The notes beneath the pieces were generated by a model. It was not told the DNA's origin. It ran no database searches and was given only the letters and a program-made list of their open reading frames with translations. From an uncultured Actinomycetota bacterium (lineage in GTDB: Bacteria > Actinomycetota > Acidimicrobiia > Acidimicrobiales > Bog-793): 64,000 bases of DNA. Shown piece by piece: positions 6,795 through 54,820 of the stretch (its first letter is position 1; each line of letters starts with the position of its first letter). The stretch is from the NCBI GenBank assembly GCA_963735115.1, contig CAVTJR010000003.1, positions 1,528,884 to 1,592,883 on the forward strand, written 5' to 3'. Position numbers and translations under genes: made by a program.

Positions 6795-6808
6795 AGGACG
6801 TTCGCCTC
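6795..6808 (+). promoter_or_regulatory. Degenerate DevR/DosR-like box upstream of hsp20
   Basis: AGGACGTTCGCCTC, followed 23 nt later by CACCAT (6832-6837). Confidence 0.5.
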
Positions 6809-6865
6809 TGGCGGGCGTACGTCCCGCCCCGCACCATACATGTGTACCCAGAGAAGGGACGCACC

Positions 6866-7318
6866 ATGACAATGATTAAACACCAGGAAGCACGGAAGCT
6901 GGAGCCATTCGATCGGTTCTTCGGCCAATGGCCCGAGATCTTCCACCGGCCGCTCATCTTCTGGCCGGAAGAAGCCGAAGCCACGCTGCGGGTTGAGGAG
7001 TACCAGGAGAACGGGACTCGAGTCATCCGAGCTGAAATGCCTGGGATCGACCCCGACAAGGACGTGGAGGTCACGGTCCTCGACGGCGTGCTCCACATCG
7101 GAGCCCAGCGCCTGGCGGAGGAGAAGTCGGAGACGAAGCGCTACGCCCGGCGCGAGCTTCGCTACGGGTCCTTCTCCCGCGACCTGCCGCTGCCAGAAGG
7201 TTGCGCCGCAGCCGACGTCAAGGCGACCTACAAGGACGGCATCCTCGAGTTCCGTCTGCCGGCTGCTTCGATGGCGAAGAAGGCCGAACCGAAGAAGATC
7301 CCGGTAGCCAAGGTTTGA
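6866..7318 (+). CDS. Hsp20/alpha-crystallin small heat shock protein
   Basis: IRAEMPGIDPDKDVEV, RELRYGSFSRDLPLP, ATYKDGILE; GAAGGGA RBS before ATG 6866. Confidence 0.95.
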   Translation: MTMIKHQEARKLEPFDRFFGQWPEIFHRPLIFWPEEAEATLRVEEYQENGTRVIRAEMPGIDPDKDVEVTVLDGVLHIGAQRLAEEKSETKRYARRELRYGSFSRDLPLPEGCAAADVKATYKDGILEFRLPAASMAKKAEPKKIPVAKV

Positions 7319-7329
7319 GTTGACACCTC

Positions 7330-7382
7330 GCCCCGGGGCAGCCCGTTTCGCCAGGGAACCGGCTGCTCCGGGGCTTTCGTTT
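7330..7382 (+). terminator. Intrinsic terminator after hsp20
   Basis: Stem GCCCCGGGGCAGCC...GGCTGCTCCGGGGC followed by TTTCGTTT. Confidence 0.8.
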
Positions 7383-7519
7383 CCTCCGCCGTCGCTAGGG
7401 AGCGTCCTAGGACTGCACGTCGATCTCTTCGGTTCAGGCTCCGGATGACGTAGTCGGATACGTGAACAAGGTAGCGGTCGGTCGCTGCCGGCGGCGTGTC
7501 CCGCTCAGCACCGCGGGAT

Positions 7520-7533
7520 GAGTCGTTTGACCC
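7520..7533 (+). promoter_or_regulatory. DevR/DosR-like box
   Basis: GAGTCGTTTGACCC(TA), followed 23 nt later by CATGCT (7557-7562). Confidence 0.55.
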
Positions 7534-7609
7534 TAGCGGTGCAGTTGCTGTCAACCCATGCTGATGTGAGCCGGGAAATGCCGCGTGCCCGGCGGGAAGG
7601 TGCCTTCCG

Positions 7610-8239
7610 ATGGTGAAGATCGCCACCTGCGACGGTGCACCGGGTCTTGAGGACCCTCTCTTGCCCCAGCCGGAAGGCAGCGTGCGCCTCGACGAGCACA
7701 CCCTCTGCATCGGCGCCGCCGTGACTCTCCAGGAGCTCGTCGACGACGAGCGCGTACCGGCCGTCATCCGCCACGCCGCACGGCGAGATCAGCCGCGGGC
7801 GGTGCGCACGCTCGCGACCGTGGGCGACTGTGTGAGTGCGGCCGACTCCGACAGCGAGCTGCTCTCGACTCTGCTCGCCTACGACGCCACCGTGACCGTC
7901 TACGACCGGCACCGCTCGATGACGATGCCGCTGGCGCGGGCCTTGAGCGGACACGCCAGCCTCATCCGATGCCTGGTTACGGCGCTCGTGATCGAAACCG
8001 ACGGCGTCGCCTTCGCTGCCAGAGTGGGGCGCGCTCCGGACGAGCGCCCCGTCGTGGCGGCTGTCGCTCGTCGGAAGATGAACGGCGAGTTGCGCGTGGC
8101 GCTCTCCGGCGTCGCCACGTTCCCCGTCGTGGCAGCGAAAACCGACGTAGTCGACCCGCCCGGGGACGTCACGGCGTCGAACGAGTACCGGCGCGTGCTG
8201 GCGACCACGGTGATGATCCGGGCCCTTGAAGGCGTCTGA
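7610..8239 (+). CDS. Molybdenum hydroxylase FAD-binding subunit homolog (YgfM/CoxM-like), N-terminally short
   Basis: IGAAVTLQEL, VRTLATVG, RVALSGVA, DPPGDVTASNEYRRVLA. It lacks the usual N-terminal PxSLxEA/AGGT segment. Confidence 0.7.
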   Translation: MVKIATCDGAPGLEDPLLPQPEGSVRLDEHTLCIGAAVTLQELVDDERVPAVIRHAARRDQPRAVRTLATVGDCVSAADSDSELLSTLLAYDATVTVYDRHRSMTMPLARALSGHASLIRCLVTALVIETDGVAFAARVGRAPDERPVVAAVARRKMNGELRVALSGVATFPVVAAKTDVVDPPGDVTASNEYRRVLATTVMIRALEGV

Positions 8240-8250
8240 CACGAGCAAGC

Positions 8251-9255
8251 TCAGCTAGCGGCCTGCGGGGCTCGATGAAATGCCTCCTCGTTGACCAAGG
8301 TGGGCGGGCGCCGCCCCCCGAGGGCCGCGAGGATGTTGTCGACCGCCAGCATTCCCATCGCCAGGCGCGTGTCGACGGTGGCACTTCCGAGATGAGGGCA
8401 GAGCACGACCCTCGGCTGCCCGAGCAGCCGAGGTGACACCTCCGGCTCCCGCTCGAACACGTCGAGTCCGGCAGCGAAGATCCTTCCTCGCTCGAGAGCC
8501 TCGGCGAGCGCCTCCTCGTCCACGACCGGACCGCGGGAGGTGTTGACGAGCACGGCCGTCGGCTTCATCGTGGCGAGGCGGGCGCCCGTGATGAGATGCC
8601 GGGTCTCCTCGGTCAGATTGACGTGGAGACTGACGAAATCAGCGACGGCGAGCAGCTCATCGAGCGTCATCGACTCGGCACCATCGGCGCCACGGCCGGA
8701 TGCCGGCGTGCTCGGGGAGTGGGCGACGTACACGACACGCATCCCGAAACCCGTCGCCCGCCGCGCCACCGCCCGCCCGATCCGCCCGAACCCGATGATG
8801 CCGAGCGTGCGCCCGTAGACGTCGCGCCCGAGCATCGTCTCGGGTCCCCAGGCCCATGGCTGGCCGGAGCGGAGGAGACGATCTCCCTCGGCAACCCTGC
8901 GGGCTGCCGCCATCAGGAGCGCCCAGGCCATGTCGGCCGTGGCCTCGGTCAGCACGTCCGGCGTGTTCGTCACCATGACCGACCGAGCGGTGCAGGCATC
9001 GACGTCGACGTTGTCGACCCCGACGGCATAATTGGCAACGACACGAAGCTGGTTCCCTGCCGCCTCGAGCAGCTCGACGTCGACCCGCTCGGTCAGCAAG
9101 GTGACGATGCCCCGCTTGCCCCTCGCATCGCGGAGAAGGACGTCGCGCGGTATGGCCGCCTCGCCATGCCAGCAGGACAGCTCGCACTCGGCAGCGAGTC
9201 GATCCATGACGGCGGCCGGTAGCCTCCTTGTCAGGAGCACTGGCTCGCGGGGCAC
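8251..9255 (-). CDS. D-isomer 2-hydroxyacid dehydrogenase (glyoxylate/hydroxypyruvate reductase type)
   Basis: ANYAVGVDNVD, NTPDVLTEATAD, GFGRIG, NTSRGPVVDE, GLDVFERE, PHLGSAT. Confidence 0.93.
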   Translation of the reverse strand: MPREPVLLTRRLPAAVMDRLAAECELSCWHGEAAIPRDVLLRDARGKRGIVTLLTERVDVELLEAAGNQLRVVANYAVGVDNVDVDACTARSVMVTNTPDVLTEATADMAWALLMAAARRVAEGDRLLRSGQPWAWGPETMLGRDVYGRTLGIIGFGRIGRAVARRATGFGMRVVYVAHSPSTPASGRGADGAESMTLDELLAVADFVSLHVNLTEETRHLITGARLATMKPTAVLVNTSRGPVVDEEALAEALERGRIFAAGLDVFEREPEVSPRLLGQPRVVLCPHLGSATVDTRLAMGMLAVDNILAALGGRRPPTLVNEEAFHRAPQAAS

Positions 9256-9363
9256 TCACGCGAACCTACAACGGCAGAAGGGGGACCATGAGTCTTCGTG
9301 GGCACTCGTCGGTACAGCTCGGGACGTGCGCGGCGAGGCGGCGCCCCTGGCCAGGTCGACTTT

Positions 9364-9377
9364 GGGCCGAAGGACCC
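9364..9377 (+). promoter_or_regulatory. DevR/DosR-like box upstream of the ade-xdh operon
   Basis: GGGCCGAAGGACCC(TA), followed 23 nt later by CAGGCT (9401-9406). A weaker copy TGACCGAAGGTTCA at 9547-9560 has CACTTT 23 nt later. Confidence 0.7.
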
Positions 9378-9612
9378 TATGCGGGTGATCGGGTCGGGTT
9401 CAGGCTTGAAGCGAGCCGCGGTGAGGCCCCGCGCCGTGATCGGCTCAAAAGACCTGTCGGGGAGCAGTGGTCGTTCTGCTGTCGCCAGGAGGAGGCCGAG
9501 GTCATGAAAGGGTTGGCCGTCGCGACATGGCCGAGCCGAGTCCCCTTGACCGAAGGTTCACTAGAGGCGGTGGCGTGGCTTCGCACTTTGTGCGCTCAGG
9601 AGGAGGGCTGAC

Positions 9613-11334
9613 ATGCCCCGTCGGGCAACACCGGAGCTTCTCGCCGTAGCTCGGGGTGACGCGCCAGCCGATCTGCTCCTCACGGGCGGGCGTGTCTTCG
9701 TTCCGAGCACGCGCGAGTGGGTACTCACCGACCTGGCCATCTACAAGGGCGTGATTGCCGGGTGGGGACAACGTGAGGCCCTCCAGGTCGTCGACGTCTC
9801 CGGGACGTCGCTGACGCCCGCCTTCATCGACGCCCACATGCACCTCGAGTCCACCAAGCTCTGGGTGGACGAGTTCGTGCGGAGGGTGCTCCCCCACGGC
9901 ACGACCGCCGTGGCGGCCGACCCGCACGAGGTCGCCAACGTCTTCGGCATCCCCGGTGTTGTCGCCTTGGCCGAGGCGGCGGCTGGGCTGCCCTTCACCT
10001 TTGGCATCTGCGCCTCGAGCTGCGTGCCGGCGTCACATTTCGAGAGCCCGGGCGCCGAGCTCGGTCCGGGCGACCTCGCCTCCTTGCTGGACGACCACGG
10101 AGCGATCGGAGTGGCCGAGGTGATGAACTTCCCCGGCGTGGTCAATGGCGACCCCGAGGTGCTGGCCAAGATCGCCGCCGCTGGCAACCGTCGCGTCGAT
10201 GGACACGCTCCCGGTCTGTGTGGTCGCCAGCTCGACGCCTATCTGGCTGCGGGCATCGAGTCGGATCACGAGTGCACGGAGCTCGCCGAGGCCGAGGAGA
10301 AACGTCGCAAGGCCATGTGGATCTTCATCCGCGAAGGTTCGGCGTCGCGCAACCTCAGAGCTCTGATTCCGACCGTGATCCGGCACGGCACGGAGCGCGT
10401 TGCCCTCTGCACCGATGACCGCGAGCCGGACACGCTCCTTCGAGCCGGACACGTGAACGACTGCGTGCGCCTGGCGGTGTCGTGCGGCGTCCCGCTGGAA
10501 GACGCCCTCGTGCTCGCCACGAGCAACCCGGCCGATTACCACCACTTCGACCATCTCGGCTGGCTGGCACCCGGTTACCAGGCCGATGTGCTCTGCTTCG
10601 AGGACCTGGCCGGAGTCGTGCCCGCACGCGTCTGGCAGGCGGGCCGCCTCGTGGCCGCCGACGGTGCCGTCGTCGACGGGGCCGTTCCTTCCCGGCCGGC
10701 GCCCGACTTCATGCGCGCCTCGGTCCATCTCGATCCTCCACCGACGGCGGCGGATCTGGACCGCCGCCCACCCGAAGGTGGGCTGGCGCGTGTCATCGGG
10801 ATCGAGGAGCACTCGCTCACGACCCGCCAGCTCATCCTCGACGTCACGGACCCGTCGGTGGAGGTCTCCCGCATCGGGGTCGTGGAGCGGCACCGCCGCA
10901 CCGGTCGTGTCGGTCTCGGCTACGTCCACGGTTTCGGTCTCGCTCGCGGTGCCATCGCCTCGACGGTGGCGCATGACGCCCACAACTGCATGGTCGTGGG
11001 CGCCATCGACGCCACCGGTCCGCCCGACATGGCGGTCGCCGTCGCCAGGCTGGCGGAGATCGGTGGAGGCCAGGTGGCCGTTCTCGACGGCCAAGTGCTC
11101 GCCGAGGTCCCGCTCCCGATCGGTGGCCTCATGAGCGACCTCGACGCAACCACGGTCGCCGTCGAGGTGGAGCGGCTGGCCGAGACGGCCTCGAAGGCGC
11201 TCGGCATCAACATCGCCGCGCCCTTCATGCAACTCAGCTTCCTCGGGCTGTCGGTTCTGCCCGAGCTGAGGATCACCGATCGCGGCATCGTCGATGTGAC
11301 GACCTTCTCTCTGGTCGACGCGGCGGCAGGCTGA
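9613..11334 (+). CDS. ade: Adenine deaminase (AdeC-type, binuclear)
   Basis: FIDAHMHLES, DPHEVANV, AEVMNFPGV, DGHAP, SDHE, REGS, CTDD, STVAHDAHN; AGGAGG RBS. Confidence 0.95.
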   Translation: MPRRATPELLAVARGDAPADLLLTGGRVFVPSTREWVLTDLAIYKGVIAGWGQREALQVVDVSGTSLTPAFIDAHMHLESTKLWVDEFVRRVLPHGTTAVAADPHEVANVFGIPGVVALAEAAAGLPFTFGICASSCVPASHFESPGAELGPGDLASLLDDHGAIGVAEVMNFPGVVNGDPEVLAKIAAAGNRRVDGHAPGLCGRQLDAYLAAGIESDHECTELAEAEEKRRKAMWIFIREGSASRNLRALIPTVIRHGTERVALCTDDREPDTLLRAGHVNDCVRLAVSCGVPLEDALVLATSNPADYHHFDHLGWLAPGYQADVLCFEDLAGVVPARVWQAGRLVAADGAVVDGAVPSRPAPDFMRASVHLDPPPTAADLDRRPPEGGLARVIGIEEHSLTTRQLILDVTDPSVEVSRIGVVERHRRTGRVGLGYVHGFGLARGAIASTVAHDAHNCMVVGAIDATGPPDMAVAVARLAEIGGGQVAVLDGQVLAEVPLPIGGLMSDLDATTVAVEVERLAETASKALGINIAAPFMQLSFLGLSVLPELRITDRGIVDVTTFSLVDAAAG

Positions 11335-11337
11335 TCC

Positions 11338-12219
11338 GTGGCGGTCCTTGTGCCTCGTTCGCTAGACGAGGCATTCGCCATGCTCGAGCGGTCCCCCGAG
11401 GCCGAGCTGCTGGCAGGCGGCACGGACTTCATGGTGGAGGTGAACGCCGGCCTCCGGCGACCCTCCGCCGTGCTCTGTCTTGGACGCATACCCGAGATCG
11501 CCGGCTGGCGACGGGAGGACGGGCACGTGGTGCTCGGCGCCGGTCTGACCTACACCGAGATGATGGAGCCGGAGCTGGCCGGTCTCGTACCCGGGCTCGC
11601 CCGCGCCGCACGGACCGTCGGCTCGCCTCAGATCCGCAACGCCGGCACCGTCGGCGGCAACCTCGGCACCGCCTCCCCGGCCGGTGACTCGCTGCCGTTG
11701 CTGGCCGCCCTCGAGGCCACCGTCGTCGTCGGCCATCTCGCAGGCACGAGGCGCACGCTTTCCTTGAGCCAGCTCCTGACCGGCCCGAAGAGGACGTCAC
11801 TCGAGCCGGGCGAGATCATCCTCGAGGTGCGAGTGCCCGCCAATTTCGGCACGCAGGAGTTCTTGAAGGTAGGCACGAGAAACGCCATGGTCATCGCCGT
11901 CGCCAGCGTGGCGGTCGTCGTCGACTGGGTCGGCCACGGTGTGCGGATCGCCCTCGGTTCCGCTGGACCGGTTGTGATCCGGGCGACCGACGCCGAGGAG
12001 CTGGCGGAGTCGAGAATCGACTGGGAGGAGCGACGCCTCGCAGCCGGCGAGGACGACCTGAGCGATTTCGTCGACCTTGTTCGGGCTGCGGCGCGCCCGA
12101 TCGACGACCACCGCTCGACCGCCCAGTACCGCCGGCATGCCGTCGGGGTATGCGCCGAGCGCGCCCTGCGCCGGGCATTCCAGGGCGATGATCGCAAGGA
12201 AGAGCCATGGAGCAGCTGA
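11338..12219 (+). CDS. pucC: Xanthine dehydrogenase FAD-binding subunit
   Basis: PRSLDEA, LAGGTDFMVEVN, VGSPQIRNAGTVGGNLGTASPAGD, KVGTRNAMVIA, PIDDHRSTAQYR. Confidence 0.9.
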   Translation: MAVLVPRSLDEAFAMLERSPEAELLAGGTDFMVEVNAGLRRPSAVLCLGRIPEIAGWRREDGHVVLGAGLTYTEMMEPELAGLVPGLARAARTVGSPQIRNAGTVGGNLGTASPAGDSLPLLAALEATVVVGHLAGTRRTLSLSQLLTGPKRTSLEPGEIILEVRVPANFGTQEFLKVGTRNAMVIAVASVAVVVDWVGHGVRIALGSAGPVVIRATDAEELAESRIDWEERRLAAGEDDLSDFVDLVRAAARPIDDHRSTAQYRRHAVGVCAERALRRAFQGDDRKEEPWSS

Positions 12220-12707
12220 GCACTGAGGGATCCCTCCTCAGCTACACGCTTCGCGTGAACGGCCGCGACCGGCCGGTCAGCGATGCGCTCATCGAAGAGA
12301 ACCTCCTCTACGTCTTGCGGGAGCGGCTCGGCCTTCGCGGGTCGAAGAACGCCTGCGAGCAGGGCGAGTGCGGGGCGTGCTCGGTGATCCTCGACGGCAG
12401 GCTGGAGTGCGCCTGCACGGTGCTCGCCGCCAGCGCCGTCGGTCGAGAGGTCGTCACGGTGGAGGGTCTCACGCCTGACGGCGACGGGCTCTCGGACCTG
12501 CAGGAAGCCTTCCTCGCCGAGGGGGCCGTCCAGTGCGGCTTTTGCACTCCGGGACTTGTCGTGAGCGTGCACGACCTCCTTTCGCGCAACCCTCACCCGA
12601 CCGAACTCGAGATTCGCGAGGCCATCTCCGGCAACCTCTGCCGCTGCACCGGCTACGGCCGCATACTTGCGGCTGTGAAGGTGGCCGAGGAGATGCACCA
12701 GCCATGA
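12207..12707 (+). CDS. pucE: Xanthine dehydrogenase [2Fe-2S] subunit
   Basis: KNACEQGECGACSV, QCGFCTPG, GNLCRCTGY. Confidence 0.92.
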   Translation: MEQLSTEGSLLSYTLRVNGRDRPVSDALIEENLLYVLRERLGLRGSKNACEQGECGACSVILDGRLECACTVLAASAVGREVVTVEGLTPDGDGLSDLQEAFLAEGAVQCGFCTPGLVVSVHDLLSRNPHPTELEIREAISGNLCRCTGYGRILAAVKVAEEMHQP

Positions 12708-15064
12708 CCACCCTCGACACGCTCGCCGAAGCCGAGACGACCGATCGCACGGCGCAGGGCCTCGGAACGAGCGCCCGCCGGCCGGACGGGCGACCCAAGG
12801 TCCGGGGGCAGTTCGCCTTCTCGTCCGATCTCGAGGCGAAGGACATGCTCTGGGGCCAGCTGCTGCGTTCTCCCCACCCGTCGGCGACCATCCGCCACAT
12901 CGACGTGTCGGGCGCGTGGCGTATCCCCGGAGTCGTGTCCGTCCTCACTGCGGACGACGTGCCCGGCCGCAGCAGCTATGGACTCGACTACCCCGACCAA
13001 CCGGTCTTCGCCTCAGACGTCGCGCGCTACGCCGGAGAGCCCGTGGCGGCGGTGGCGGCTGACCACCCCGTGACGGCGCGACGTGCCGCCGAGGCCATCG
13101 TCGTCGACTACGAGGTGCGCGAGCCGCTCACCGACTCCGAGGCGGCCCTCACGGCCGAGCCGATCCACCCGCTCGGCAACGAGCTCTACCGTCAGACGAT
13201 CCGCCGGGGTGACCCTGCCGCCACTGGCGTCGTCTCGGTCGAGGGCCACTACGAGACCGGCATGCAAGACCAGGCCTTCATGGGGCCTGAATCGGGCCTG
13301 GCCGTTCCGGCGGCCGATGGCGGCGTCGACCTGTACATCGCCACACAGTGGCTGCACGTCGACCAGGACCAGATCGCCGCCTGCCTCGGCTTGCCCCTCG
13401 ACCTCGTGCGCGTTCACCTCGCCGGTGTCGGCGGGGCCTTCGGCGCCCGTGAGGACCTGAGCATGCAGGTGCAGCTCTGCCTGCTGGCGTTGCGCTCGGG
13501 CCGGCCGGTGAAGATCGTCTACTCGCGGGAGGAGTCCTTCCACGGCCATGTCCATCGGCATCCAGCGCGAATGTGGTACCGGCACACGGCCGATGCCACC
13601 GGCCGACTCGTAAGTGTCGAAGCCCGTATCCTCTTCGACGGCGGCGCCTACCTCTCGTCGTCAACGGCCGTGACGCTGAACGCCGCCTGCTTCGCCAACG
13701 GCCCCTACAAGGTGCCCAACGCCTTCGTCGACTGCACGGCGGTGCGCACGAACAACCCTCCATGCGGCGCCATGCGCGGCTTCGGCGCGGTCCAGGTGTG
13801 CTTCGCCCACGAGGCCCAGATGGACAAGCTCGCCGCTGCCCTTTCGATCGACCCAGTCGAACTGCGACTCTTGAACGCCTATGCGCCGGGAGACGAACTC
13901 ATCATCGGACAGGTGCTGACGGGGACGGCGCCGGTCGCCGAAGTCATCCGGGCGTGCGCGGCCGCCCCGCTGCCTCCCGGAAGTCCGGACACGGTGCCCG
14001 AGCTCGCCCTTCCCGGGGGTGCCGGCCGGACGGCCGAACGGCGGCGGGTGCGACGCGGGGTGGGTTTCGCTGTCGGGTTCAAGAACCTCATGTTCTCCGC
14101 TGGCTTCGACGATTACTCGACGGCGCGTTGCCGCCTCGAGGACGGTCAGGTGACGATCACGACCGCCGCTGTCGAGGTGGGACAGGGCCTCGTCACACTG
14201 ATACAGCAGATCGCCCGTGATGTGCTCGGAGTCGACGAGGTCGCCCTCGGAGAAGCTGCGACGGTTGGCATCGGCTCGGCAGGCTCCACCTCGGCGAGCC
14301 GCCAGAGCTGGATGACGGGGGGCGCGGTCGACAGCGCCTGCAGGACGGTCCGCGAGCGACTCCTCTCCTCCATCGCCCAGCGCTTCGAGGTGCCGCGTGC
14401 CGGTCTCGAGCTCGCCTCCGGCCGGGTCGTCTCCGCCGACGGTTCGTTCAACGTCTCCCTGTCCGAGGCTGCCGCCGGAGAGGTCCTCGAGGAGACGGCC
14501 GTCTTCCGCCACCCTGGGACAGCTGAGCTCGACGAGAACGGCCAGGGCGACGCCCATGTCTCGTTCGCTTTCGCCGCTCATCGGGCCGTCGTCGACGTCG
14601 ACCTCGACCTCGGTCTCGTCAAGGTCGTCGAAGTTGCCACTGTCCAGGACGTCGGTCGCGTCCTCAACCCCGTGCAGCTCCTCGGCCAGCTCGAGGGCGG
14701 CATCTCCCAGGGCGTGGGTTTCGCCGTGATGGAAGAGATCGTCCTCGACAAGGGGAAGGTGCGCAACCCTTCGTTCACCGACTACATCATCCCGACGGCG
14801 CTCGATATGCCACCGGTGAGAGTCGAGGCCCTCATCGAGCAGCCCGAGCCGGGCTCGCCTCTCGGTGCCAAGGGCGCCGGCGAGCCGCCGTCGATCTCGT
14901 CCACCGCCGCCGTCGTGGCGGCCATCCGCAACGCCACGGGTCTCGAGCTGGCACGAACCCCGGTGCGGCCGCAGGACATCGCCCTCGCCCTCGCCGGGCA
15001 ACCGTCCGAAGGGGCCGGCGAGGCCCCCGCCACCCCCTCGCCCGCAAAGGAGGCCATGCCATGA
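12704..15064 (+). CDS. pucD: Xanthine dehydrogenase molybdenum-binding subunit
   Basis: ATGA-coupled to the 2Fe-2S gene. [50 protein letters not shown]. Confidence 0.92.
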
Positions 15065-16065
15065 CAACGCCCGTCGCTGTCTACCTGCAGGACGCCCATC
15101 CCATCCGTCAGGGGATGGAGATCGCCAAGTACGCCGAGTCGAAGGGCTTCCACGCCGTCTGGCAAGCCGAGAGCCGCCTCGTGAGGGAGGCGACTGTGCC
15201 GATGGCGGCGTTTCTGTCCGTCACCGAGCGGATCAAGGTCGGCTCCGGCGTGGTCAACAACTGGACCCGCAACCCGGCCCTCCTCGCCTCGACGTTCTCC
15301 ACCCTCGATGACCTCGCCCCCGGGCGCGTCATCCTCGGGATCGGGGCCTGGTGGGAACCACTTGCCAGCAAGGTCGGCATCAAGCGGGAGAAGCCGCTGC
15401 GCGCCATGCGCGAGACCGTGGAGGCCGTCCGCGCCCTGCTCACCGACAAGAACGTCACCTACGAGGGAGAGTTCGTCCACCTCGACGGTGTCGAGCTCGA
15501 TTACGTCTACCAGGAGCGGCGAGCAAAGGACGTGCCCATCTACATCGGCGCCACGGGGATGCAGATGATGGAGCTCGCCGGCGAGATCGGCGACGGTGTC
15601 GTGCTCAACTACCTCGTCTCGCCCGCCTACAACGACCGAGCCCTCGAGCACCTCGAGGTGGGTGCGCAGCGGGCAGGGCGCTCGGCCAGCGACATCGACA
15701 GGCCGCAGCTCGTCGTCTGCTCGCTCGACGAGGACCGCGAGGCGGCCCTCGATGCGGCCCGCATGCTCGTGACGCAATACCTCGGCCAGCAACCCCACAT
15801 CATGAAGGCCTCGGGCGTGCCCCAGTCGCTCCTCGACAAGATCGGCGAGGTGCTGACGTGGCCGGCGACCCACGAGCAGGTGGAGGCCGCCTCGAAACTC
15901 GTCCCGGACGAGATCGTGCAGATGCTGACGGCCTCGGGAACCGCCTCGGAGTGCCGGGCGCAGGTGGCCGAGTACGTGAGGCGGGGTTGCACCTGCCCGG
16001 TGCTCTACCCGCTCGGCCGGGATGTGCACGCCATGATCGACGCCTTCGCGGACTGGACCGCCTGA
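15061..16065 (+). CDS. Luciferase-like (LLM) oxidoreductase, Mer-like, probably F420-dependent
   Basis: ATGA overlap with the pucD stop. [17 protein letters not shown]...[23 protein letters not shown]...LAGEIGDG. Confidence 0.85.
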
Positions 16066-16868: not shown

Positions 16869-17891
16869 TCAGAGGCGGGCGAAGAGCCGAGCCGCCTGCT
16901 CGCGGGCGCGTGCTCGGATCTCGGCCGGATCGACCCTCGTGGGCTGGCCGTCGCGCAGGACGGCCTCTCCGTCCACGACGACCTCGAGCGGGCGCACGCC
17001 GGGCGTGAAGGCGAGGTGCCAGGCGTCCATCGGCTCGTAGCTCCAGCGCACGCGGTCGTCACGCGCCTCTGGCACGAGCTCGTAACCGCCCTCCAGCCAG
17101 GACCAAGCCGCCGACGGTGCGGCCGTCACGTCGTCTTCCCGATGGCGGGCATACGCGACTCGGAACTCCTCGAGCATGTCGGCCCCGATGCCGTCGGTGC
17201 CGAGAGCCACAGTGCCCTCCCACCGAGCGGGACGGCCGTAGCCGACGGCGTTGTTCATGTTCGAGCGTGGGTTGTGTGCCACGGTGCCCCGAAGCGGTCG
17301 GTCGAGGTGCACGCAGTGGGCGAGCAGCCAATTGTCAGCCGCCACCGCCTCCAGCCGTCCGCCTGCGGCGGCGTCGACACGGTCCTCCGACACATGGATG
17401 TGCACGCCGGCCCCGAGGTCGGTAGCGAGTCCCACGACCTCCTCGAGCGTCGCTTCCGAGAGCGTGAAGCACGCATGGGCACCAACGAAACCTCGTCCGC
17501 CGCCTTTCAAGAAACGCTCGTTCTCCGCCAGTCCTGCCCTCGTTCCCGCTGCACCGTTGCGGTCCGTGACCTCGTAGCAGCACAGCGACCGCACGCCCAC
17601 CTCTGCACAGGCCTCGGCGATGACGTCGAGCGAACCCTCGATGGCGTTCGGCGAGGAATGATGATCGACGATGGCCGTGGTGCCGCCTTCGAGCGCCTCC
17701 AGCGCCCCCAGCAACGCCGACCAGCGGATCATGTCGAGGTCGAGGGCGCAGTCGAGCCGCCACCACACGAGCTCGAGGATCTCGGGGAAGTCCCTGGGCA
17801 CTCGCGGTGGCGGCGGCATCCCCCGGGCGAGGGCGGAGTACAGGTGGTGGTGTGCACAGACGAGCCCCGGCGTCTCCTCACCGGGCGTCAT
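16869..17891 (-). CDS. ssnA: SsnA-like metal-dependent amidohydrolase
   Basis: PGLVCAHHHLYSALARG, EILELVWWRLD, GTTAIVDHH, GAHACFT, HIHVSE, HNPRSNMNN, LGTDGIG. Start 17891 lies just after the upstream Mo-enzyme stop. Confidence 0.8.
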   Translation of the reverse strand: MTPGEETPGLVCAHHHLYSALARGMPPPPRVPRDFPEILELVWWRLDCALDLDMIRWSALLGALEALEGGTTAIVDHHSSPNAIEGSLDVIAEACAEVGVRSLCCYEVTDRNGAAGTRAGLAENERFLKGGGRGFVGAHACFTLSEATLEEVVGLATDLGAGVHIHVSEDRVDAAAGGRLEAVAADNWLLAHCVHLDRPLRGTVAHNPRSNMNNAVGYGRPARWEGTVALGTDGIGADMLEEFRVAYARHREDDVTAAPSAAWSWLEGGYELVPEARDDRVRWSYEPMDAWHLAFTPGVRPLEVVVDGEAVLRDGQPTRVDPAEIRARAREQAARLFARL

Positions 17892-17895
17892 GGGG

Positions 17896-20499: not shown

Positions 20500-20598
20500 G
20501 GCTCCATTCTCCCACTGCCCTGATCGGCGGCGCGCCCCACCTGGCCGGCGCCGAGAAGTGCCTCGTTCCATGATCGCTCGGCCGTGGGCGCCTAGGTA

Positions 20599-20661
20599 GG
20601 GGCGAAGGACCCTAAGGCAGCCCCACGGGCTTTCGCCTGCTCCTAAAGGGTCCTTCGGCCC
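20599..20661. promoter_or_regulatory. Pair of DevR/DosR-like boxes in a divergent promoter
   Basis: TA-GGGGCGAAGGACCC-TAA (20599-20612) with minus-strand GATCAT 23 nt away, and GGGTCCTTCGGCCC (20648-20661) with plus-strand TACCCT 23 nt away. Confidence 0.75.
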
Positions 20662-20766
20662 TTCAGGCCGCCCGCCCTCATCTTTACCCTTCGGTTACAA
20701 GCAGCGTTACCAGCCCTCCATCAACACCGAGGTTGGGGGGGAGGTCGACCGGGAGAGGAGTCGCGA

Positions 20767-22925: not shown

Positions 22926-23027
22926 TGCCCCCCGCACGTGTCTTCCCATCTACTCGGGGCCGGCCGCCCCTGCGGTCGCCCACCTCGACACATTCAGTTC
23001 AGTCCGAACCCTAAGAAAGGAATGACA

Positions 23028-26863: not shown

Positions 26864-26866
26864 GGG

Positions 26867-27844: not shown

Positions 27845-27848
27845 CGGT

Positions 27849-28802: not shown

Positions 28803-28838
28803 GCATGCATCTTGCCTGCTCCGGAATGTGCCGAGCTA

Positions 28839-28852
28839 GGGCCTTTCGGCCC
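28839..28852 (-). promoter_or_regulatory. DevR/DosR-like box upstream of the transcarbamylase-carbamate kinase operon
   Basis: TA-GGGCCTTTCGGCCC; minus-strand CAAGAT 24 nt away, 6 nt before the ATG at 28802, consistent with a leaderless transcript. Confidence 0.75.
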
Positions 28853-28935
28853 GATTGTCGCCCTCGGCGCGCCGATACAGTTGCCTGGCCAGCACGGACG
28901 GCTGGGCGCAGCGACGAATCGGAAGGACGCCATCG

Positions 28936-37920: not shown

Positions 37921-38025
37921 TGGCGTCGTGACTCCTTCTTGTCTCGCTTCGTTGCGATGTCGGCCAGCTGAATCAGGCACAGACGCTCGTGAACAAATGA
38001 TGCGCCCGGCTCGACGAGCGAACTA

Positions 38026-38039
38026 GGGCCGAAGGTCCC
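38026..38039 (-). promoter_or_regulatory. DevR/DosR-like box upstream of gdhA
   Basis: TA-GGGCCGAAGGTCCC; minus-strand CATCAT 23 nt away (38002-37997). Confidence 0.75.
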
Positions 38040-40949: not shown

Positions 40950-41047
40950 CTTCGGACCTCCCTTGTGCCGGAAAGAGAAACCCGCAAGTTCCCCTCGGTG
41001 CGGCTCGTCCGTTAACAAACATGTTCCTTTCGAGGGCGGCTTCTCTA

Positions 41048-41114
41048 GGGTCTTTGTGCCCTACTTCGAGCAGGCAGAGGAGGCGGGGATCATCGATGCA
41101 GGATCGAAAGTCCC
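41048..41114. promoter_or_regulatory. Two DevR/DosR-like boxes in a divergent promoter
   Basis: TA-GGGTCTTTGTGCCC-TA (41048-41061) with minus-strand CATGTT 24 nt away, and GGATCGAAAGTCCC (41101-41114). Confidence 0.7.
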
Positions 41115-47379: not shown

Positions 47380-47393
47380 TTGACCTTCGGCCC
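47380..47393 (+). promoter_or_regulatory. DevR/DosR-like box
   Basis: TTGACCTTCGGCCC(TA), followed 23 nt later by GACACT (47417-47422). Confidence 0.55.
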
Positions 47394-47472
47394 TATTCGC
47401 CTCCGCCCATCGAGCCGACACTGTCAGCAGAGGCTTCGCGAGGCGCAGCCCGAAGCAGGAGGGACGAGCCAC

Positions 47473-47703
47473 ATGACCGACGTGATGATGCCTGAGGGGA
47501 TGGTGCACGCCGAGCGCGCCGAGGTGCACGAGAAGCAACCGGCGGTGTACGCGGCCGGGCGCATCTGCGACGAGCCGTTGTGTGGAACAAGGCTGTCCAT
47601 CTACAACCGTTCGACGACCTGCGCGCTTCATGCCCACGTCTCCTATGCCAGCAGCGGCCACCGCGTGCATCGCGGCCGTCGCAGGGCTGCCTCGGCGGCC
47701 TAG
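47473..47703 (+). CDS. Small hypothetical protein with putative Zn finger and basic tail
   Basis: AGGAGG RBS; GRICDEPLCGTRLSIYNRSTTCALH (C-x4-C-x12-C-x2-H); RVHRGRRR tail. Confidence 0.65.
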   Translation: MTDVMMPEGMVHAERAEVHEKQPAVYAAGRICDEPLCGTRLSIYNRSTTCALHAHVSYASSGHRVHRGRRRAASAA

Positions 47704-47757: not shown

Positions 47758-48930
47758 ATGGCGGATACAAAGACATGGACGATCAGGACGGGTGTCGGCC
47801 TCGTGCTGGTGTGCGGGCTCGCAGCCGGTGGCTACGGCATCGTGCACGCAGCCTCCGGCTCGCATGACGGCGCCCTCGCAGGCACTGACACGGCATCCCG
47901 CTCAGCAGCGAAACCCTCTGGTTCGAGCTCGCCCCCGAGCTCGTGGCCGAATGGCGGGTTCCGGCGAGGCGGTGCGGGCTTCGGGCCTGGCGCCTTCGGA
48001 CGGGTCGGCGCCGGCTTCGGGCCTGGCAGCTTCGGGCTAGGTGGCGCCTCGGGCACGGTCGCAACGGTCGCAACCCGGTCGTTCACCGTGAAGACCCAGC
48101 AGGGAAGCACCCTCACTGTCGACACAACAGCCTCCACCACGTACTACGAGGCCGTCTCGAAGGTCGGAGCATCTGCCCTCAAGGCCGGCGAGCGGGTCGC
48201 CATCTCGTTCACGCGACCGGCGTCGTCAGCCGCAGGATCGAGCTCAGCTGGCACCGCCAAATCTGTGACACCCGTGGCCGCCACCGTCAACATCATCCTG
48301 CCCACGCTGCAGGGCGAGGTGGTCTCGAACTCCGGCGGGACGATCGTCATCGAGGACGCCCAGGGTTTCCAGCGCACGGTCGACACGTCGGGCTCGACGA
48401 CGTATACGGAAGCCGGCGCCACCGTCCCGACATCGGCGGTGACCAACGGCCTCGACATCATCGCCTTCGGCACCATCGCCTCTGACCACACCGACCTCGA
48501 CGCCACGACCGTCGAGGTGATCGGGCCGGTCGCCGCAGGCAAGGTGACGAAGATCTCGGGCACGACGATCACCGTCTCGTCGCCATGGGGCGGCGGGGGT
48601 TCCACAACGATCGCCACGACGCCGTCGACGATCTTCCGGAAGGGTGGGAAGGCATCGTCACTCGCCCGCCTCAAGGTCGGGGACATCGTGACGGCGATCG
48701 GCACCCGTGAGAGCGGCGGCACCTTTGCCGCCACAGCCGTCAGCTTCGGCTCGCTCGCCAGCACGCCGAGGAACGCCGGGGGGCTCGGGCTCGGCGGCGG
48801 CTTCTTCGGCGGCGTCGGGTCTCGGCCGAGCTTTGGAGGCTCTGGTGCCCCCGGTCCAGTGCCCGCTGCCGCCGGCGGCGGTCTTGACGGAGCGAGCGGC
48901 TTCGGCTCCTCGAGCCTGCTCACGTACTGA
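47758..48930 (+). CDS. Exported Gly/Thr-rich protein with three repeated beta domains (DUF5666-like)
   Basis: N-terminal TM/signal; three repeats of G-x-V...T.TVxTTxSTxY...LKxGxxV; Gly-rich termini. Confidence 0.7.
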   Translation: MADTKTWTIRTGVGLVLVCGLAAGGYGIVHAASGSHDGALAGTDTASRSAAKPSGSSSPPSSWPNGGFRRGGAGFGPGAFGRVGAGFGPGSFGLGGASGTVATVATRSFTVKTQQGSTLTVDTTASTTYYEAVSKVGASALKAGERVAISFTRPASSAAGSSSAGTAKSVTPVAATVNIILPTLQGEVVSNSGGTIVIEDAQGFQRTVDTSGSTTYTEAGATVPTSAVTNGLDIIAFGTIASDHTDLDATTVEVIGPVAAGKVTKISGTTITVSSPWGGGGSTTIATTPSTIFRKGGKASSLARLKVGDIVTAIGTRESGGTFAATAVSFGSLASTPRNAGGLGLGGGFFGGVGSRPSFGGSGAPGPVPAAAGGGLDGASGFGSSSLLTY

Positions 48931-49864: not shown

Positions 49865-49879
49865 ATAAGTATTACTGAT
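49865..49879. promoter_or_regulatory. LysR-type T-N11-A box
   Basis: ATAAGTATTACTGAT, an AT-rich dyad immediately upstream of the lysR start. Confidence 0.55.
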
Positions 49880-49935
49880 GTAGAGATAGCGGAACATCGT
49901 TGGACGTTCTGTTCGGCTTCAGCGAGGATGCAGAC

Positions 49936-51266: not shown

Positions 51267-51473
51267 GAGCCGGCCGCCGGCGGCGACGCCCATCGTCGCT
51301 CGCTCTTCCGGCGGGAGTCTGACCGCCTCGAATGCGCCACGCGGAAAGAGGGCGCGCCGGCACGCCGCCCCTTCCAAGACGCTCGACCTGCGGCGCGCGA
51401 CAATGTCGGGCGAGGGGCCGGGCACCCCCCTCCTTGGAGCACTGGGCATGCTGGCGCTGGGCGACGGAGGCTC

Positions 51474-53126
51474 GTGGGACCGCTGGACCCGACAAGGACA
51501 CCTTCCTCGAGAGCGCAGGAGCGCGAGAACGCCCGTATCCAGGCGTTCAAGCTCGTCGTCGACGTCCAGGCGGCCGTGTACGGTGCCTCCGAAGCGATCG
51601 ATCGCCTCCTCGACGACGCCTTGGCAGAGGGGTGGCCGGAGGTCGTTCGGGCAGGCATCTTCGCCGCCGCCGTGGCCGCCGTGGCTCTTGACTACAAGCA
51701 CGGGCTTCCCGCTATCGAGCGCCTTCTCGCCCAAGCCGATGCAGATGGCGACCATGCGATGGTCGCCCTCGCCCTCGCCATGCGCTCCAGCCTGGACACG
51801 ACCGGAGAGCATCAGTCGGCCGCCTTGGATGCAGACGCCGACCTCGCCCGCGCCACCGTGCTGCTCGAGTCCGCTCACGGCGACGAGCTCACGCGCATGA
51901 CGGCGCACAACGAGTGTGCGCAGGCGTTCGGCGATCGCTGGCTCTGGGAGCTGGCCGACGAGCAGTACGCGGCCGCCTTGAGCTTGGCTCCCTCCGAGCC
52001 CCCCGCGTGGTTGCCGTTCGTCCTGCCGGCGATCGTCTACAACCAGGCCGAGATGCAGGTCGACTGGGCCTGTGCACAACGCCAGCTTGGCGACGACGAG
52101 GGTGTGGCCGAACGTTGGCAAACTTGGGAGACGACGATGGCGACGGCTGTCGGCGTCGAGCTGCCCCACCTGTGGCGCACTGAGTTGAACGCTCTCGGCT
52201 GCCTGCTGGGGGCCATCGCCGGACACGACACGGGCGAAGAGGCGCAGGCTCAGCTGGCGGCTCTTTCGCCGGATGAGCACGTCCGCGCCTGGCCACTCGG
52301 GCACCTCTGGCTGGCGATGGCGCTGCAGCGCACAACGTCGGGCCACCTCGCCGAGGCGGCGGAGGCGACAGAGGCCGCTCTGATGAACATCGACCCCCAC
52401 GGCTCACCCGACACCTACGACCTCGCCCTCTCGGTCGCCGCCGAGCTGGAGGGTCGCGGAGGTCACGCCGTGGGGCTTCGCTACGGGCGTCGCCAGCTCG
52501 AGCGCCGCTCCGCCAACCGCCTCGCCGCCCTCGGGTCCATGCGGTCTCGCCTGCAGGCTGAGCGACTCCACAGCGAGCACGATCTGTTGAGCCGCCACGC
52601 CCATCTCGACGACCTGACAGGTCTGTCGAACCGACGCGGCTTCGATCGGTACCTGGCTGCGCTGGATCACCAGGGCATCGACGCCGTGGCGATCCTCCTC
52701 GTGGACCTCGATGGCTTCAAGGCCGTCAACGACCACTACGGTCACGCCACGGGCGACGCCGTCCTCATCGCCGTCGCCGGCGTGTTGCAGACGAGCGTAC
52801 GACAGGTTGACTGCGCCGTGCGGCTGGGGGGCGACGAGTTCGCCGTCGTCCTGGCCTCCGCCAATCTCGAGGTGGCGCGCATGCGAGCAGAGGCTGTGGT
52901 GGGCACCGTTCGCCAGCATCCCTGGGCCGGCATGGCTCCCGACTTGAACGTCTCGATCAGCGTGGGCCTCGCAGCCGGTCCATCGTCGAGCATGCGCGAG
53001 CTCATCGCGGCGGCGGACTCAGCCCTCTACGAGGCGAAGGCCGCAGGAGGTCACCGCATCATCTCCCGGCAGTTGCCGGCTCGAGCCTCGAAGGGGCGCG
53101 ACCCTACGGAAGAGACCTTGACCTAG
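51474..53126 (+). CDS. Diguanylate cyclase (GGDEF) with helical N-terminal region
   Basis: DDLTGLSNRR, DLDGFKAVND, GHATGD, RQVD I-site, RLGGDEF, ADSALYEAK. Confidence 0.9.
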   Translation: MGPLDPTRTPSSRAQERENARIQAFKLVVDVQAAVYGASEAIDRLLDDALAEGWPEVVRAGIFAAAVAAVALDYKHGLPAIERLLAQADADGDHAMVALALAMRSSLDTTGEHQSAALDADADLARATVLLESAHGDELTRMTAHNECAQAFGDRWLWELADEQYAAALSLAPSEPPAWLPFVLPAIVYNQAEMQVDWACAQRQLGDDEGVAERWQTWETTMATAVGVELPHLWRTELNALGCLLGAIAGHDTGEEAQAQLAALSPDEHVRAWPLGHLWLAMALQRTTSGHLAEAAEATEAALMNIDPHGSPDTYDLALSVAAELEGRGGHAVGLRYGRRQLERRSANRLAALGSMRSRLQAERLHSEHDLLSRHAHLDDLTGLSNRRGFDRYLAALDHQGIDAVAILLVDLDGFKAVNDHYGHATGDAVLIAVAGVLQTSVRQVDCAVRLGGDEFAVVLASANLEVARMRAEAVVGTVRQHPWAGMAPDLNVSISVGLAAGPSSSMRELIAAADSALYEAKAAGGHRIISRQLPARASKGRDPTEETLT

Positions 53127-53196
53127 TCAAGTCATCCCGTCAGCCGAGGCTGTTGGGTGGGTGCTCGGCTCTGAGCGGCCCGAGGGGCGTTTGCTT

Positions 53197-53224
53197 GACG
53201 AACCCGCAACCGGATCCCTACGGT
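53197..53224 (+). promoter_or_regulatory. Possible sigma-70 promoter
   Basis: TTGACG-N18-TACGGT upstream of the beta-helix gene (approximate coordinates). Confidence 0.4.
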
Positions 53225-53320
53225 CGGCTCCGCACCACGGGGGCTGGAGCCGACGGCGGGAATTCGAGGTGTTGCGGCCTGCAGGCACGTGGTGGTCCAA
53301 CAACGAAGGAGGCGGTGCTC

Positions 53321-54538
53321 ATGCAACCAAGGATCCTGCGGGCCGTCGTGCCCGCCGTCGTGCTCCTTGGAGCCGTGACCGTCGGCGCAGCTGGAGTCGC
53401 CGGCGCAGCCACACCTCGGGCGAAGACGCTCTGGGTGGCGCCACTGGCGACGAAGAGCAAATCGGCGGCATGTCGGGACGCCGCCTACCACGAGATCAAC
53501 GCCGCAATCGCCGCCGCCTCGCGCGGCGACACAGTCATGGTCTGTGCAGGCACGTACACCGGCTCTACGACGATCACGACCGGCGTGGCGCAACAGCCGA
53601 CGATCACGACCGAGGCGGACATCGACAAGTCGATCCGCCTGATCGGCCAACGCGGCGCCACCATCGACGCCGCCGGCGTCGACAACGGCGTCACGTTCTT
53701 CGTGACGACCAACGCCACCGTGAAGGGGTTCTCCATCAGGGGCGCAACGGGAGAGGGTGTGCTGGCCTTGCTCTCGAGCCACCTCACGATCGAGAACAAC
53801 ATCGTCGAGAGCAACGACACCGGCAGCTCGACGAGCTCTTGGTCCGAGTGCCAGGCGAGCGGCTTGGTCCCCAACGACTGCGGCGAGGGCATTCACCTGA
53901 TGTCGAGCACGTACTCGAAGGTGCTCGACAACACCTCGGAGTTCAACTCCGGCGGCATCCTCTTGAGCGACGACTTCGGCCCCAACCACAACAACGAGGT
54001 CAGCGGGAACCTCGTCGAGGACAACGAGTCGGACTGTGGCATCACCGTCGTCGGCCACAACCCCGATGCCGTCAACAGCGCAGGGGTACCCCGCCCGACC
54101 AAGGGCGGAACCTACGACAACACCATCAGCGACAACGTCGTCATCTCGAACGGCACGACGGGTGACGGCGGTGGCGTCCTCCTAGCCTCGGGCGTCTCGG
54201 GCGGCGGCTCCTACGACAACACGGTGACCGGCAACGAGATCGCCGGCAACGGGCTGAGCGGCATCACCGTCCACCAGCACGCACCGCTGTCGGACGTCTC
54301 GGGCGACGTCTTCAGCGACAACTGGGTCGGGACGAATGACCTTCTCGGCGACCCGGGCACGGGCGACTCGGCCACCACGGGCATCCTCGTCGACAACGGC
54401 GGCACCGGCAAGACGATCTCGGTGACGGTCGAGGGCAACACGATTGCCTGGAACACCTATGGCGTCTACGACGACGCCCCTGGCATTACCCGCGTCGGCA
54501 ACACCTTCGTTCACGTCAAGATCCACTTCAAGAGGTAG
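53321..54538 (+). CDS. Secreted right-handed parallel beta-helix (NosD/pectin-lyase-like) protein
   Basis: Signal peptide; INAAIAAASRGDTVMVCAGTY; repeated Asn-ladder GI.L...N.VxxN units; AAGGAGG RBS. Confidence 0.85.
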   Translation: MQPRILRAVVPAVVLLGAVTVGAAGVAGAATPRAKTLWVAPLATKSKSAACRDAAYHEINAAIAAASRGDTVMVCAGTYTGSTTITTGVAQQPTITTEADIDKSIRLIGQRGATIDAAGVDNGVTFFVTTNATVKGFSIRGATGEGVLALLSSHLTIENNIVESNDTGSSTSSWSECQASGLVPNDCGEGIHLMSSTYSKVLDNTSEFNSGGILLSDDFGPNHNNEVSGNLVEDNESDCGITVVGHNPDAVNSAGVPRPTKGGTYDNTISDNVVISNGTTGDGGGVLLASGVSGGGSYDNTVTGNEIAGNGLSGITVHQHAPLSDVSGDVFSDNWVGTNDLLGDPGTGDSATTGILVDNGGTGKTISVTVEGNTIAWNTYGVYDDAPGITRVGNTFVHVKIHFKR

Positions 54539-54785
54539 CCCCACGGCGCACCGCCTCCGCGGGGCGCTGGACGCGATGACAAAACGGCTTCGCAGCGGTT
54601 GACCGTAGGTGGTAGGCGCAGGCGACACCCCGGCGCCTACCACTGGTTTCGGGCTCACGATCGAACCACGTCCCCGTGGTCGATGCGGCTCGAATCTGCC
54701 CGCAGAGGGCGCAACCGCGACCGGGTGGCTGATCCCTTGCGGTCTCGGGCGGCCCCCCGGGGCCCGGTTGCCGCGCCCTTGCGAT

Positions 54786-54820
54786 GGGTCTTTTGCCCTC
54801 GCAGGTGGGACTTTCGGCAC
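54786..54820 (+). promoter_or_regulatory. Tandem DevR/DosR-like boxes
   Basis: GGGTCTTTTGCCCT (54786-54799) and GGGACTTTCGGCAC (54807-54820), 21 bp apart; CAGACT 24 nt after the second. Confidence 0.65.

Follow-up and report, generated by a model that had tools for sequence, protein, structure and literature searches.

The 64,000 bp stretch analysed here (C3:1528884-1592883, the window) comes from the genome of an uncultured actinobacterium labelled Acidimicrobiales (4.42 Mb, 68% G+C, three contigs), and carries recurrent copies of a short palindrome, the box, in front of the genes of a purine breakdown island. The box is most probably the operator of the single orthologue of DevR/DosR in this genome, a response regulator of the NarL family whose gene is on another contig, as judged from sequence comparison. 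The regulon is of a known kind, the DosR type, and what is new is the lineage and the unusual, fermentative content of the regulon. To our knowledge nearly all that is known of DosR comes from mycobacteria and, under the name OsdR, from Streptomyces, where it has been read as a switch for dormancy or development.

The operator is a 14 bp palindrome, GGGNC-N4-GNCCC, with TA flanks, forming the core of a 16-20 bp site, and the signal resides in this specific form, in which the A/T centre and TA flanks occur far above chance. A loose pattern (GGGNCNNNNGNCCC, at most one mismatch) is rarer in the window than in shuffled sequences (81 matches vs 119.7 expected); it therefore has no evidential value, and weight matrices were used instead. 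The first matrix, a symmetric 20-mer built from 11 window sites, has 29 genome matches scoring at least 15, of which 26 are in non-coding DNA and 21 are outside the window; at a score of at least 18, 13 of 13 matches are non-coding. The second is a composite of box and downstream hexamer, with 28 promoters, all from outside the window, as its training set, and at its threshold (score at least 18) it finds 56 matches, none of them in coding DNA; our own gene calls leave 24% of the genome as non-coding DNA. Ten Markov simulations of non-coding DNA contained zero to two matches, compared with 49 observed in the same segments. Eleven of the 56 are inside the window, a region with a 1.45% share of the genome (P ~5e-10). 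The initial annotation had named the frequency of the motif in coding DNA as a check, and the answer depends on the form: the specific form is intergenic (56 of 56), whereas exact matches to the loose pattern number, genome-wide, 112 in coding and 65 in non-coding DNA.

The boxes are placed at a fixed distance from a weak -10 hexamer (NANNNT), with the box centre 30 nt before its first base. We examined 33 intergenic sites outside the window in both directions (66 directions), the spacing never having been used in training, and found the hexamer after a gap of 23 nt in 19 directions and of 24 nt in six; the mean count for gaps of 0-60 nt is 2.44, so that enrichment at 23 nt is about 8-fold (binomial P ~2e-12). 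Weaker sites (score 10-12) peak likewise, with nine at gap 23 and five at gap 24, compared with 1.8. A gap of 23-24 nt puts the box centre at approximately -42.5 or -43.5 relative to the predicted starts, overlapping the -35 region. The class-II geometry near -42 that had been proposed from eleven hexamers in the window, all of which do lie 23 or 24 nt after the 14-mer, is thus borne out at sites that played no part in the proposal.

Promoters with a box are oriented. The consensus of the 28 promoters outside the window is TTAGGGACGTTCGACCCTAG. In promoter orientation the box is asymmetric: its proximal half (G-N-CCC-TA) hardly varies, its distal GGG is less strict, and its centre is TT in 25 of 29 oriented promoters. 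The -10 hexamers are weak, only six of 29 beginning with T, and there is no -35-like hexamer after the box. Second boxes (score at least 8) at offsets of -20 to -22 are present in none of the 56 promoters; where a second box is nearby at all, it belongs to a back-to-back divergent pair (offsets -49 and -27). The second M. tuberculosis position, -63.5, was searched as well and had no box. In six of the 56 promoters the start codon of the best open reading frame (ORF) coincides with the predicted transcription start, and leaderless transcripts are likely to occur genome-wide.

A single DevR orthologue and a DosT-like kinase

A regulator encoded outside the window had been anticipated, and a tblastn search found no NarL-type regulator inside it. 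The orthologue (C2:396654-397313) aligns end to end with DevR of M. tuberculosis (3c3w_A, residues 1-214, E 2.5e-77) and, by a count from the alignment, is about two thirds identical to it in the receiver domain. It keeps the phospho-acceptor Asp (aligned VLDV), and the recognition-helix stretch FLAEKTVKNYVS is identical to that of 3c3w; we take K179, K182 and N183 of DevR to be its DNA-contacting residues. The orthologue is unique in the genome, the next paralogue being 42% identical, and it is the last gene of an operon comprising a small ORF, a cytochrome-b-like gene, an unknown gene and the regulator. The operon is headed by a box scoring 28.3, ~2.1 kb upstream of the regulator, and a divergent universal stress protein (USP) gene has a box of its own.

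The anticipated regulator is accompanied by a plausible partner, an orphan kinase of 379 residues (C3:191862-193001) with a GAF domain matching the haem-binding GAF-A of DosT (2vzw, E 3e-46) and DevS (2w3d). The proximal His is kept (HPPM), HisKA_3 and HATPase domains are present, there is one GAF only, and the gene is preceded by a DUF4118 gene and, further upstream, a box scoring 23.4. A canonical DevS with two GAF domains was not found; a PAS-GAF-HisKA_3 kinase (C2 ~939 kb, beside a response regulator-EAL protein) has no DevS-like GAF.

By homology, the DosT/DevS-type haem-GAF kinase would phosphorylate the regulator at low oxygen or on binding nitric oxide (NO) or carbon monoxide (CO). The regulator dimer would bind the palindrome and its TA flanks, and the box, which stands at the observed spacing in place of a -35 element, would recruit RNA polymerase with the class-II geometry of M. 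tuberculosis DosR. Purine breakdown ending in carbamate kinase would then be switched on within a programme for surviving anoxia.

The comparison with M. tuberculosis is close in several respects. The two systems share the operator frame with GGGNC half-sites, a full-length orthologous regulator with an identical recognition helix, a sensor with a predicted haem GAF-A-like domain, and a box centre at about -42.5 or -43.5 (from predicted starts here) as at tgs1 and hspX. Excerpts from PMC3177182 give GGGAC as the DevR half-site and -42.5 and -63.5 as the positions of the tgs1 boxes, and list Rv1996, ctpF, Rv2005c and tgs1 among the targets; excerpts from PMC13486717 place the centre of the hspX box at -43.5 and describe a DosR dimer that touches sigma region 4 and alpha, and activates. 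Target types in common are a small heat-shock protein, USPs, a CBS protein, DGAT, a P-type ATPase and autoregulation. The departures are the unlinked kinase with one GAF, the operon shared by the regulator and a cytochrome-b-like gene, the host lineage label (Acidimicrobiales rather than Mycobacteriales), and regulon content not seen there: the purine island, the arginine deiminase pathway, and a PFOR-type enzyme with an ADP-forming acetyl-CoA synthetase.

OsdR/OsdK of Streptomyces coelicolor is likewise a non-mycobacterial DevR orthologue with a 16-nt palindrome, AGGGCCGATCGGCCCT, and with USP genes nearby, and OsdR binds M. tuberculosis Dev boxes (excerpts from PMC5069765). The C/G-rich positions of its inner half-site resemble those of the present boxes. 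As far as those excerpts go, however, its targets are in development and stress and its centre is a symmetric AT, in contrast to the oriented TT and fixed -10 spacing here; purine or xanthine has no occurrence in that paper. The description of the box as DevR-like accords with the frame and half-sites of the DevR and OsdR consensus in the parts of these papers (PMC5069765, PMC3177182) that we could draw on.

The predicted regulon and its apparently fermentative content

The window had been taken to define a regulon. It holds only about one fifth of a predicted regulon of ~56 promoters and so does not define it. The predicted targets outside the window include a dormancy-type group by Pfam, namely USPs, a CBS protein, two WS/DGAT proteins, a P-type cation ATPase, pyridoxamine-oxidase-family proteins, a flavodoxin-like protein and dodecin, and the boxes heading the operons of the regulator and the kinase predict autoregulation. 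A small heat-shock target had also been suggested, and there is indeed an HSP20 gene behind the box at 6795. Other box-headed units belong to anoxic energy routes: arginine deiminase and ornithine carbamoyltransferase together with an amino-acid permease; an ADP-forming acetyl-CoA synthetase transcribed divergently from a PFOR-type oxidoreductase; a hydrogenase-like operon (Fer4, NAD-binding and NiFe small subunit); and GAPDH. An ammonium transporter and a GAF-PAS-GGDEF-EAL protein are box-headed as well. Two more units carry nucleobase genes, namely another xanthine dehydrogenase (XDH)-like pair, and a xanthine/uracil permease with an AtzD/TrzD-type ring-opening amidohydrolase of the barbiturase/cyanuric-acid-hydrolase family (C3:158645-162300, L050).

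The island of nucleobase catabolism spans ~6.8 to 47 kb of the window (~40 kb), and as had been proposed, most of its transcription units are headed by a box, with 9-10 predicted promoters. The anaerobic urate or 2,8-dioxopurine cluster of gut bacteria, which consists of an XdhAC-type enzyme, YgfK, SsnA, HyuA, YgeW, YgeY, YgeX and YqeA, has only part of its gene set in common with the island: carbamate kinase and a hydantoinase and, as candidates, the selenium-type XDH-like protein, the SsnA-like amidohydrolase and the carbamoyltransferases. Against NCBIfam models (31 island proteins), carbamate kinase and D-hydantoinase exceed their cut-offs, the XDH-like protein (window 17896-20571) scores 814.6 bits on TIGR03311, slightly below the cut-off of 830.45, and the SsnA (266 vs 444) and YgeW (176 vs 453) matches are below theirs. 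YgfK, YgeY and YgeX differ in having no clear counterpart among the gene calls by Pfam (49 called window proteins) or NCBIfam, queries that do not prove absence; the two PALP-family enzymes of the island match weakly to other subfamilies. In the excerpts of a preprint on the gut pathway, YgeW and carbamate kinase yield ATP, and gene regulation is mentioned only as a possible cause of strain differences (bioRxiv 10.1101/2025.04.24.650524).

Comparison with same-genus relatives shows island boxes and -10 hexamers that are kept amid diverged flanks. The carbamoyltransferase gene is present in nine of 30 related genomes (a tally that counts the unpublished G002, which has no match), comprising seven of eight in the same genus and two from other genera of the family. 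In all seven same-genus loci the box at 28839 and both of its hexamers are conserved blocks, and the spacer has otherwise diverged. For the other sites we compared the islands of five relatives, smaller denominators being the relatives with the anchor gene. The box at 20648 is kept in five of five, each with TANNNT at the same spacing, and those at 20599 and 41048 in three and four of five respectively; the box at 9364 with its hexamer is kept in 3/3 with the ade anchor, that at 38026 in 3/3 with the gdh anchor, and that at 47380, with the same orientation, in two (G003 and G008) of three with the Rieske anchor. Each of these islands has five to nine composite promoters. Anchor genes for 6795 (HSP20) and 7520 were not found in the fragments compared, and no HSP20 orthologue was found with this query in five same-genus genomes; an HSP20 paralogue in G006 is also preceded by a box.

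Among 80 public loci, a composite promoter precedes the carbamoyltransferase gene in nine of the 15 closest and in none of the 65 more distant, which have only two stray matches, and the link between box and enzyme is therefore limited to one clade. The 15 closest are labelled Acidimicrobiales, Acidimicrobiaceae or unclassified Actinomycetota, and some are possibly the same assemblies as the relatives above. DevR orthologues are found more widely, in 24 of 29 relatives searched and in 17 of 17 in the family (counting G002), so that the regulator is old and the recruitment of the island recent. No boxes were matched near the orthologues of relatives, but these loci reach 1.5 kb upstream and ~2.1 kb would be needed.

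These patterns suggest that a peat-soil actinobacterium turns on purine breakdown when oxygen runs out. A bolder proposal, to which we give rather less than an even chance, is that in an uncultured clade of peat and wetland Acidimicrobiales the ancient DosR hypoxia switch captured the whole 40-kb purine island, together with arginine deiminase, PFOR with ADP-forming acetyl-CoA synthetase, and hydrogenase, and that the 'dormancy' regulon is here a programme of fermentative ATP production. If so, these organisms would live in water-logged anoxic soil on nucleic-acid necromass by substrate-level phosphorylation at carbamate kinase, and the DosR circuit, with single-box class-II promoters and a one-GAF sensor, would have a simpler and perhaps ancestral form here. 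The genes of the regulon suggest an active anoxic energy metabolism, in which purines are converted to carbamoyl phosphate and ATP alongside arginine deiminase, 2-oxoacid oxidation and hydrogen. This offers a testable hypothesis for how abundant peat actinobacteria survive swings in oxygen, would tie the recently described enzymes of oxygen-independent purine degradation to a defined oxygen-sensing circuit, and presents in its single-box promoters a simpler natural system for studies of DosR activation.

The hypoxic programme of M. smegmatis offers a parallel. DosR controls hydrogenase in M. smegmatis. Abstracts describe an aerobe-type actinobacterium using hydrogenase and fermentation-like routes in hypoxia, comparable to the box-headed hydrogenase-like operon here, and differ in that they describe no purine or carbamate-kinase branch. 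In the literature searched, which most subscription journals lie outside, we found no prior report linking DosR with purine, xanthine dehydrogenase or adenine deaminase; excerpts from PMC13284343 contain nothing on purines.

Weighing the explanations

Several points weigh against a DevR-type operator acting as an oxygen-responsive activator site. The kinase has one GAF rather than two and is unlinked to the regulator. The promoters here have single boxes, whereas M. tuberculosis, according to excerpts from PMC3177182, cannot do without a tandem arrangement of helically phased boxes at a distance of 21 bp. A site overlapping -35 could equally serve a repressor, and three of the 13 sites first listed fail. 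Genes were called with a crude log-odds caller based on codon-position G+C (GC3), with names from Pfam and NCBIfam; its calls cover 76% of the genome, so that 'intergenic' is approximate, and some intergenic matches are several kb from any called gene (e.g. C3:1319635), in regions that the caller misses. The second matrix was trained on sites found by the first, and the first on window sites, so that the scans are not fully independent, and independent evidence is limited to the spacing test, the contrast of coding and non-coding DNA, and the relatives. Contigs from four RNA-library assemblies match island genes with 0 differences; they give no starts, strand or level and DNA carry-over is possible, and we therefore draw no inference from them on expression of the island.

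Of the other explanations the strongest, although still unlikely, is that operator and regulator are correctly identified and the signal is something other than oxygen, such as redox state, NO or CO, energy starvation or stationary phase, with the island serving to scavenge nitrogen or necromass and not for fermentation. The missing second GAF in the kinase is consistent with this, as are the PAS-GAF kinase in the genome, the GAF-GGDEF-EAL proteins in both genome and regulon, the ammonium transporter and glutamate dehydrogenase among the targets, and the lack of clear island counterparts of YgfK, YgeY and YgeX. However, the nearest matches of the GAF are the haem GAF-A domains of DosT and DevS, whose proximal His it keeps, the co-regulated routes for ATP and redox balance are anoxic ones (arginine deiminase, PFOR-type, ADP-forming acetyl-CoA synthetase, hydrogenase-like), and the DNA occurs in peat and wetland metagenomes, all of which argue for oxygen as the signal. 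Altogether the DNA is found in peat, wetland and soil metagenomes (15 public runs with at least half of the sampled words; 20 holders, 14 studies).

Two further explanations concern the protein at the box. The first is that the DevR orthologue does bind there and represses by blocking RNA polymerase at -35 until it is released, the box occupying that place. We regard this as improbable; weak hexamers of which few begin with T, and no -35-like hexamer after the box, are typical of activator-dependent promoters, and DosR of M. tuberculosis, the orthologue, is an activator when bound at this position and contacts sigma region 4 and alpha (PMC13486717, in excerpts). The second, which has marginally less in its favour, is that another NarL/LuxR paralogue or an unrelated dimeric factor binds the box, whose likeness to Dev boxes would be convergent or family-wide. 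There are 11 further NarL-type regulators (by tblastn) and 11 HisKA_3 kinases in the genome, and GGGNC...GNCCC palindromes are simple at 68% G+C; but the best paralogue is only 42% identical, the recognition helix of the orthologue is that of DevR letter for letter, the box heads the operons of both the orthologue and the DosT-like kinase, and the targets resemble a dormancy regulon. Finally, the palindromes are G+C-rich intergenic inverted repeats, and one box is duplicated elsewhere with its gene, but it is highly implausible that they are repeats of a structural or mobile kind, for instance REP-like elements or terminator hairpins, and not protein binding sites, given their location upstream of genes, often between divergent ones, at a fixed 23-24 nt from a hexamer, their oriented asymmetry (TT centre in 25/29, CCCTA nearly invariant), relatives that keep the sequence and not mere pairing potential, and a window with no Rfam match.

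The thirteen window sites and the island genes

All thirteen palindromes listed in the initial annotation are present and all lie in gaps between gene calls, but only ten are supported as probable operators (6795, 7520, 9364, 20599, 20648, 28839, 38026, 41048, 47380 and 54807; Table 1). The site at 9547 is probably not an operator; it is not kept in three of three relatives, is below both matrix thresholds, and is within a conserved small ORF. The site at 41101 is doubtful, having no hexamer at gap 23 or 24 and being in a stretch that is missing in the aligned relatives. The third, at 54786, is sub-threshold as a second box at offset -21 and is absent from both matrix scans.

Table 1. Candidate sites and island genes in the window (window coordinates; scores are for the composite matrix unless stated)
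Feature	Position	Strand	Sequence	-10 hexamer	Score	Target or remark
Box 6795 (weak)	6795..6808	+	AGGACGTTCGCCTC	CACCAT 6832-6837	22.6	Precedes HSP20 gene (6842 or 6872 to 7318; Pfam)
Box 7520	7520..7533	+	GAGTCGTTTGACCC	CATGCT 7557-7562	25.8	Precedes FAD-binding-subunit-like ORF 7610-8239 (Pfam, NCBIfam)
Glyoxylate-reductase-like gene	8251-9255	-
Box 9364	9364..9377	+	GGGCCGAAGGACCC	CAGGCT 9401-9406	26.4	Heads long leader, small ORF and ade operon 9613-16065
Site 9547	9547..9560	+	TGACCGAAGGTTCA		<14	Below both matrix thresholds
Adenine deaminase	9613-11334	+				Downstream, as far as 16065: xanthine dehydrogenase subunits (XdhB, XdhC and PucD types) and an F420-type oxidoreductase
SsnA-like amidohydrolase and fused selenium-type XDH-like protein	16869-20571	-
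Box 20599	20599..20612	-	GGGTCCTTCGCCCC (minus strand)	GATCAT 20570-20575	29.4 (best in window)	Selenium-type XDH-like gene (20571-17896), then SsnA-like amidohydrolase
Box 20648	20648..20661	+	GGGTCCTTCGGCCC	TACCCT 20685-20690	26.2	Heads BMP-family ABC transporter operon
BMP-type ABC transporter	20767-25696
Carbamate kinase and two carbamoyltransferases	25910-28802	-
Box 28839	28839..28852	both			21.9 and 18.9	One box, two divergent promoters
Box 28839, minus promoter		-		CAAGAT 28809-28814		Two carbamoyltransferases and carbamate kinase (28802-25910)
Box 28839, plus promoter		+		TACAGT 28876-28881		Amidohydrolase 28936-30654
Amidohydrolases						Include D-hydantoinase and 8-oxoguanine deaminase
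Two pyridoxal phosphate (PLP) enzymes and NADP-glutamate dehydrogenase	to 37980	-
Box 38026	38026..38039	-	GGGACCTTCGGCCC (minus strand)	CATCAT 37997-38002	23.1	Heads NADP-glutamate dehydrogenase 37980-36562
NCS1 permease	39402-40949	-
Box 41048	41048..41061	-	GGGCACAAAGACCC (minus strand)	CATGTT 41018-41023	17.6	NCS1 nucleobase permease (conserved ATG 40949, end 39402)
Site 41101	41101..41114		GGATCGAAAGTCCC	none at gap 23/24	15.3 (symmetric)
Box 47380	47380..47393	+	TTGACCTTCGGCCC	GACACT 47417-47422	25.6	Cys-rich ORF 47473-47703, then DUF5666 protein 47758-48930; points away from Rieske oxygenase gene
Site 54786	54786..54799	+	GGGTCTTTTGCCCT			21 nt upstream of box 54807
Box 54807	54807..54820	+	GGGACTTTCGGCAC	CAGACT 54845-54850	18.8	Heads DoxX-family membrane protein gene 54961-55497 (Pfam)

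Several of the units have features of their own. The minus-strand transcript from the box at 28839 would be leaderless, as the conserved ATG of the carbamoyltransferase gene is 6 nt past CAAGAT, and the promoter at 38026 perhaps also serves the genes down to 32106. The DoxX gene and its box promoter (window 54771-55564) are repeated at C1:929990-930789 (95% over 800 nt) and at C2:607171-607639 (84% over 469 nt), indicating that the regulated unit was duplicated. Within the 200-nt leader of the adenine deaminase operon there is an ORF of 35 codons (9503-9610, plus strand) with a Shine-Dalgarno sequence, whose ATG is kept in three same-genus genomes and whose TGA ends 1 nt short of the start codon of ade (ATG, 9613). 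Its role may be that of an upstream ORF or of a coupled leader peptide. An Rfam scan of the window had no family match, and so identifies no purine riboswitch in this long leader.

At the left edge of the window, beside the island, are the hydrogenase maturation genes hypF, hypD and hypC (1-2800), where a box search found none. Downstream of the box at 47380, the ORF at 47473-47703 (plus strand) encodes 76 residues, is Cys-rich and has no match in a Pfam search, with a GC3 of 0.84 and a good Shine-Dalgarno sequence; the DUF5666 gene that follows (47758-48930) was passed over by the GC3 caller, which chose an antisense ORF. Lastly, the ATCase-like carbamoyltransferase at 27849-28802 (minus strand) is 75-94% identical among the 80 public loci to proteins of metagenome-assembled genomes labelled Chloroflexota, Planctomycetota, Spirochaetota, Verrucomicrobiae and others, an unusually high conservation across phyla that suggests wide horizontal spread.

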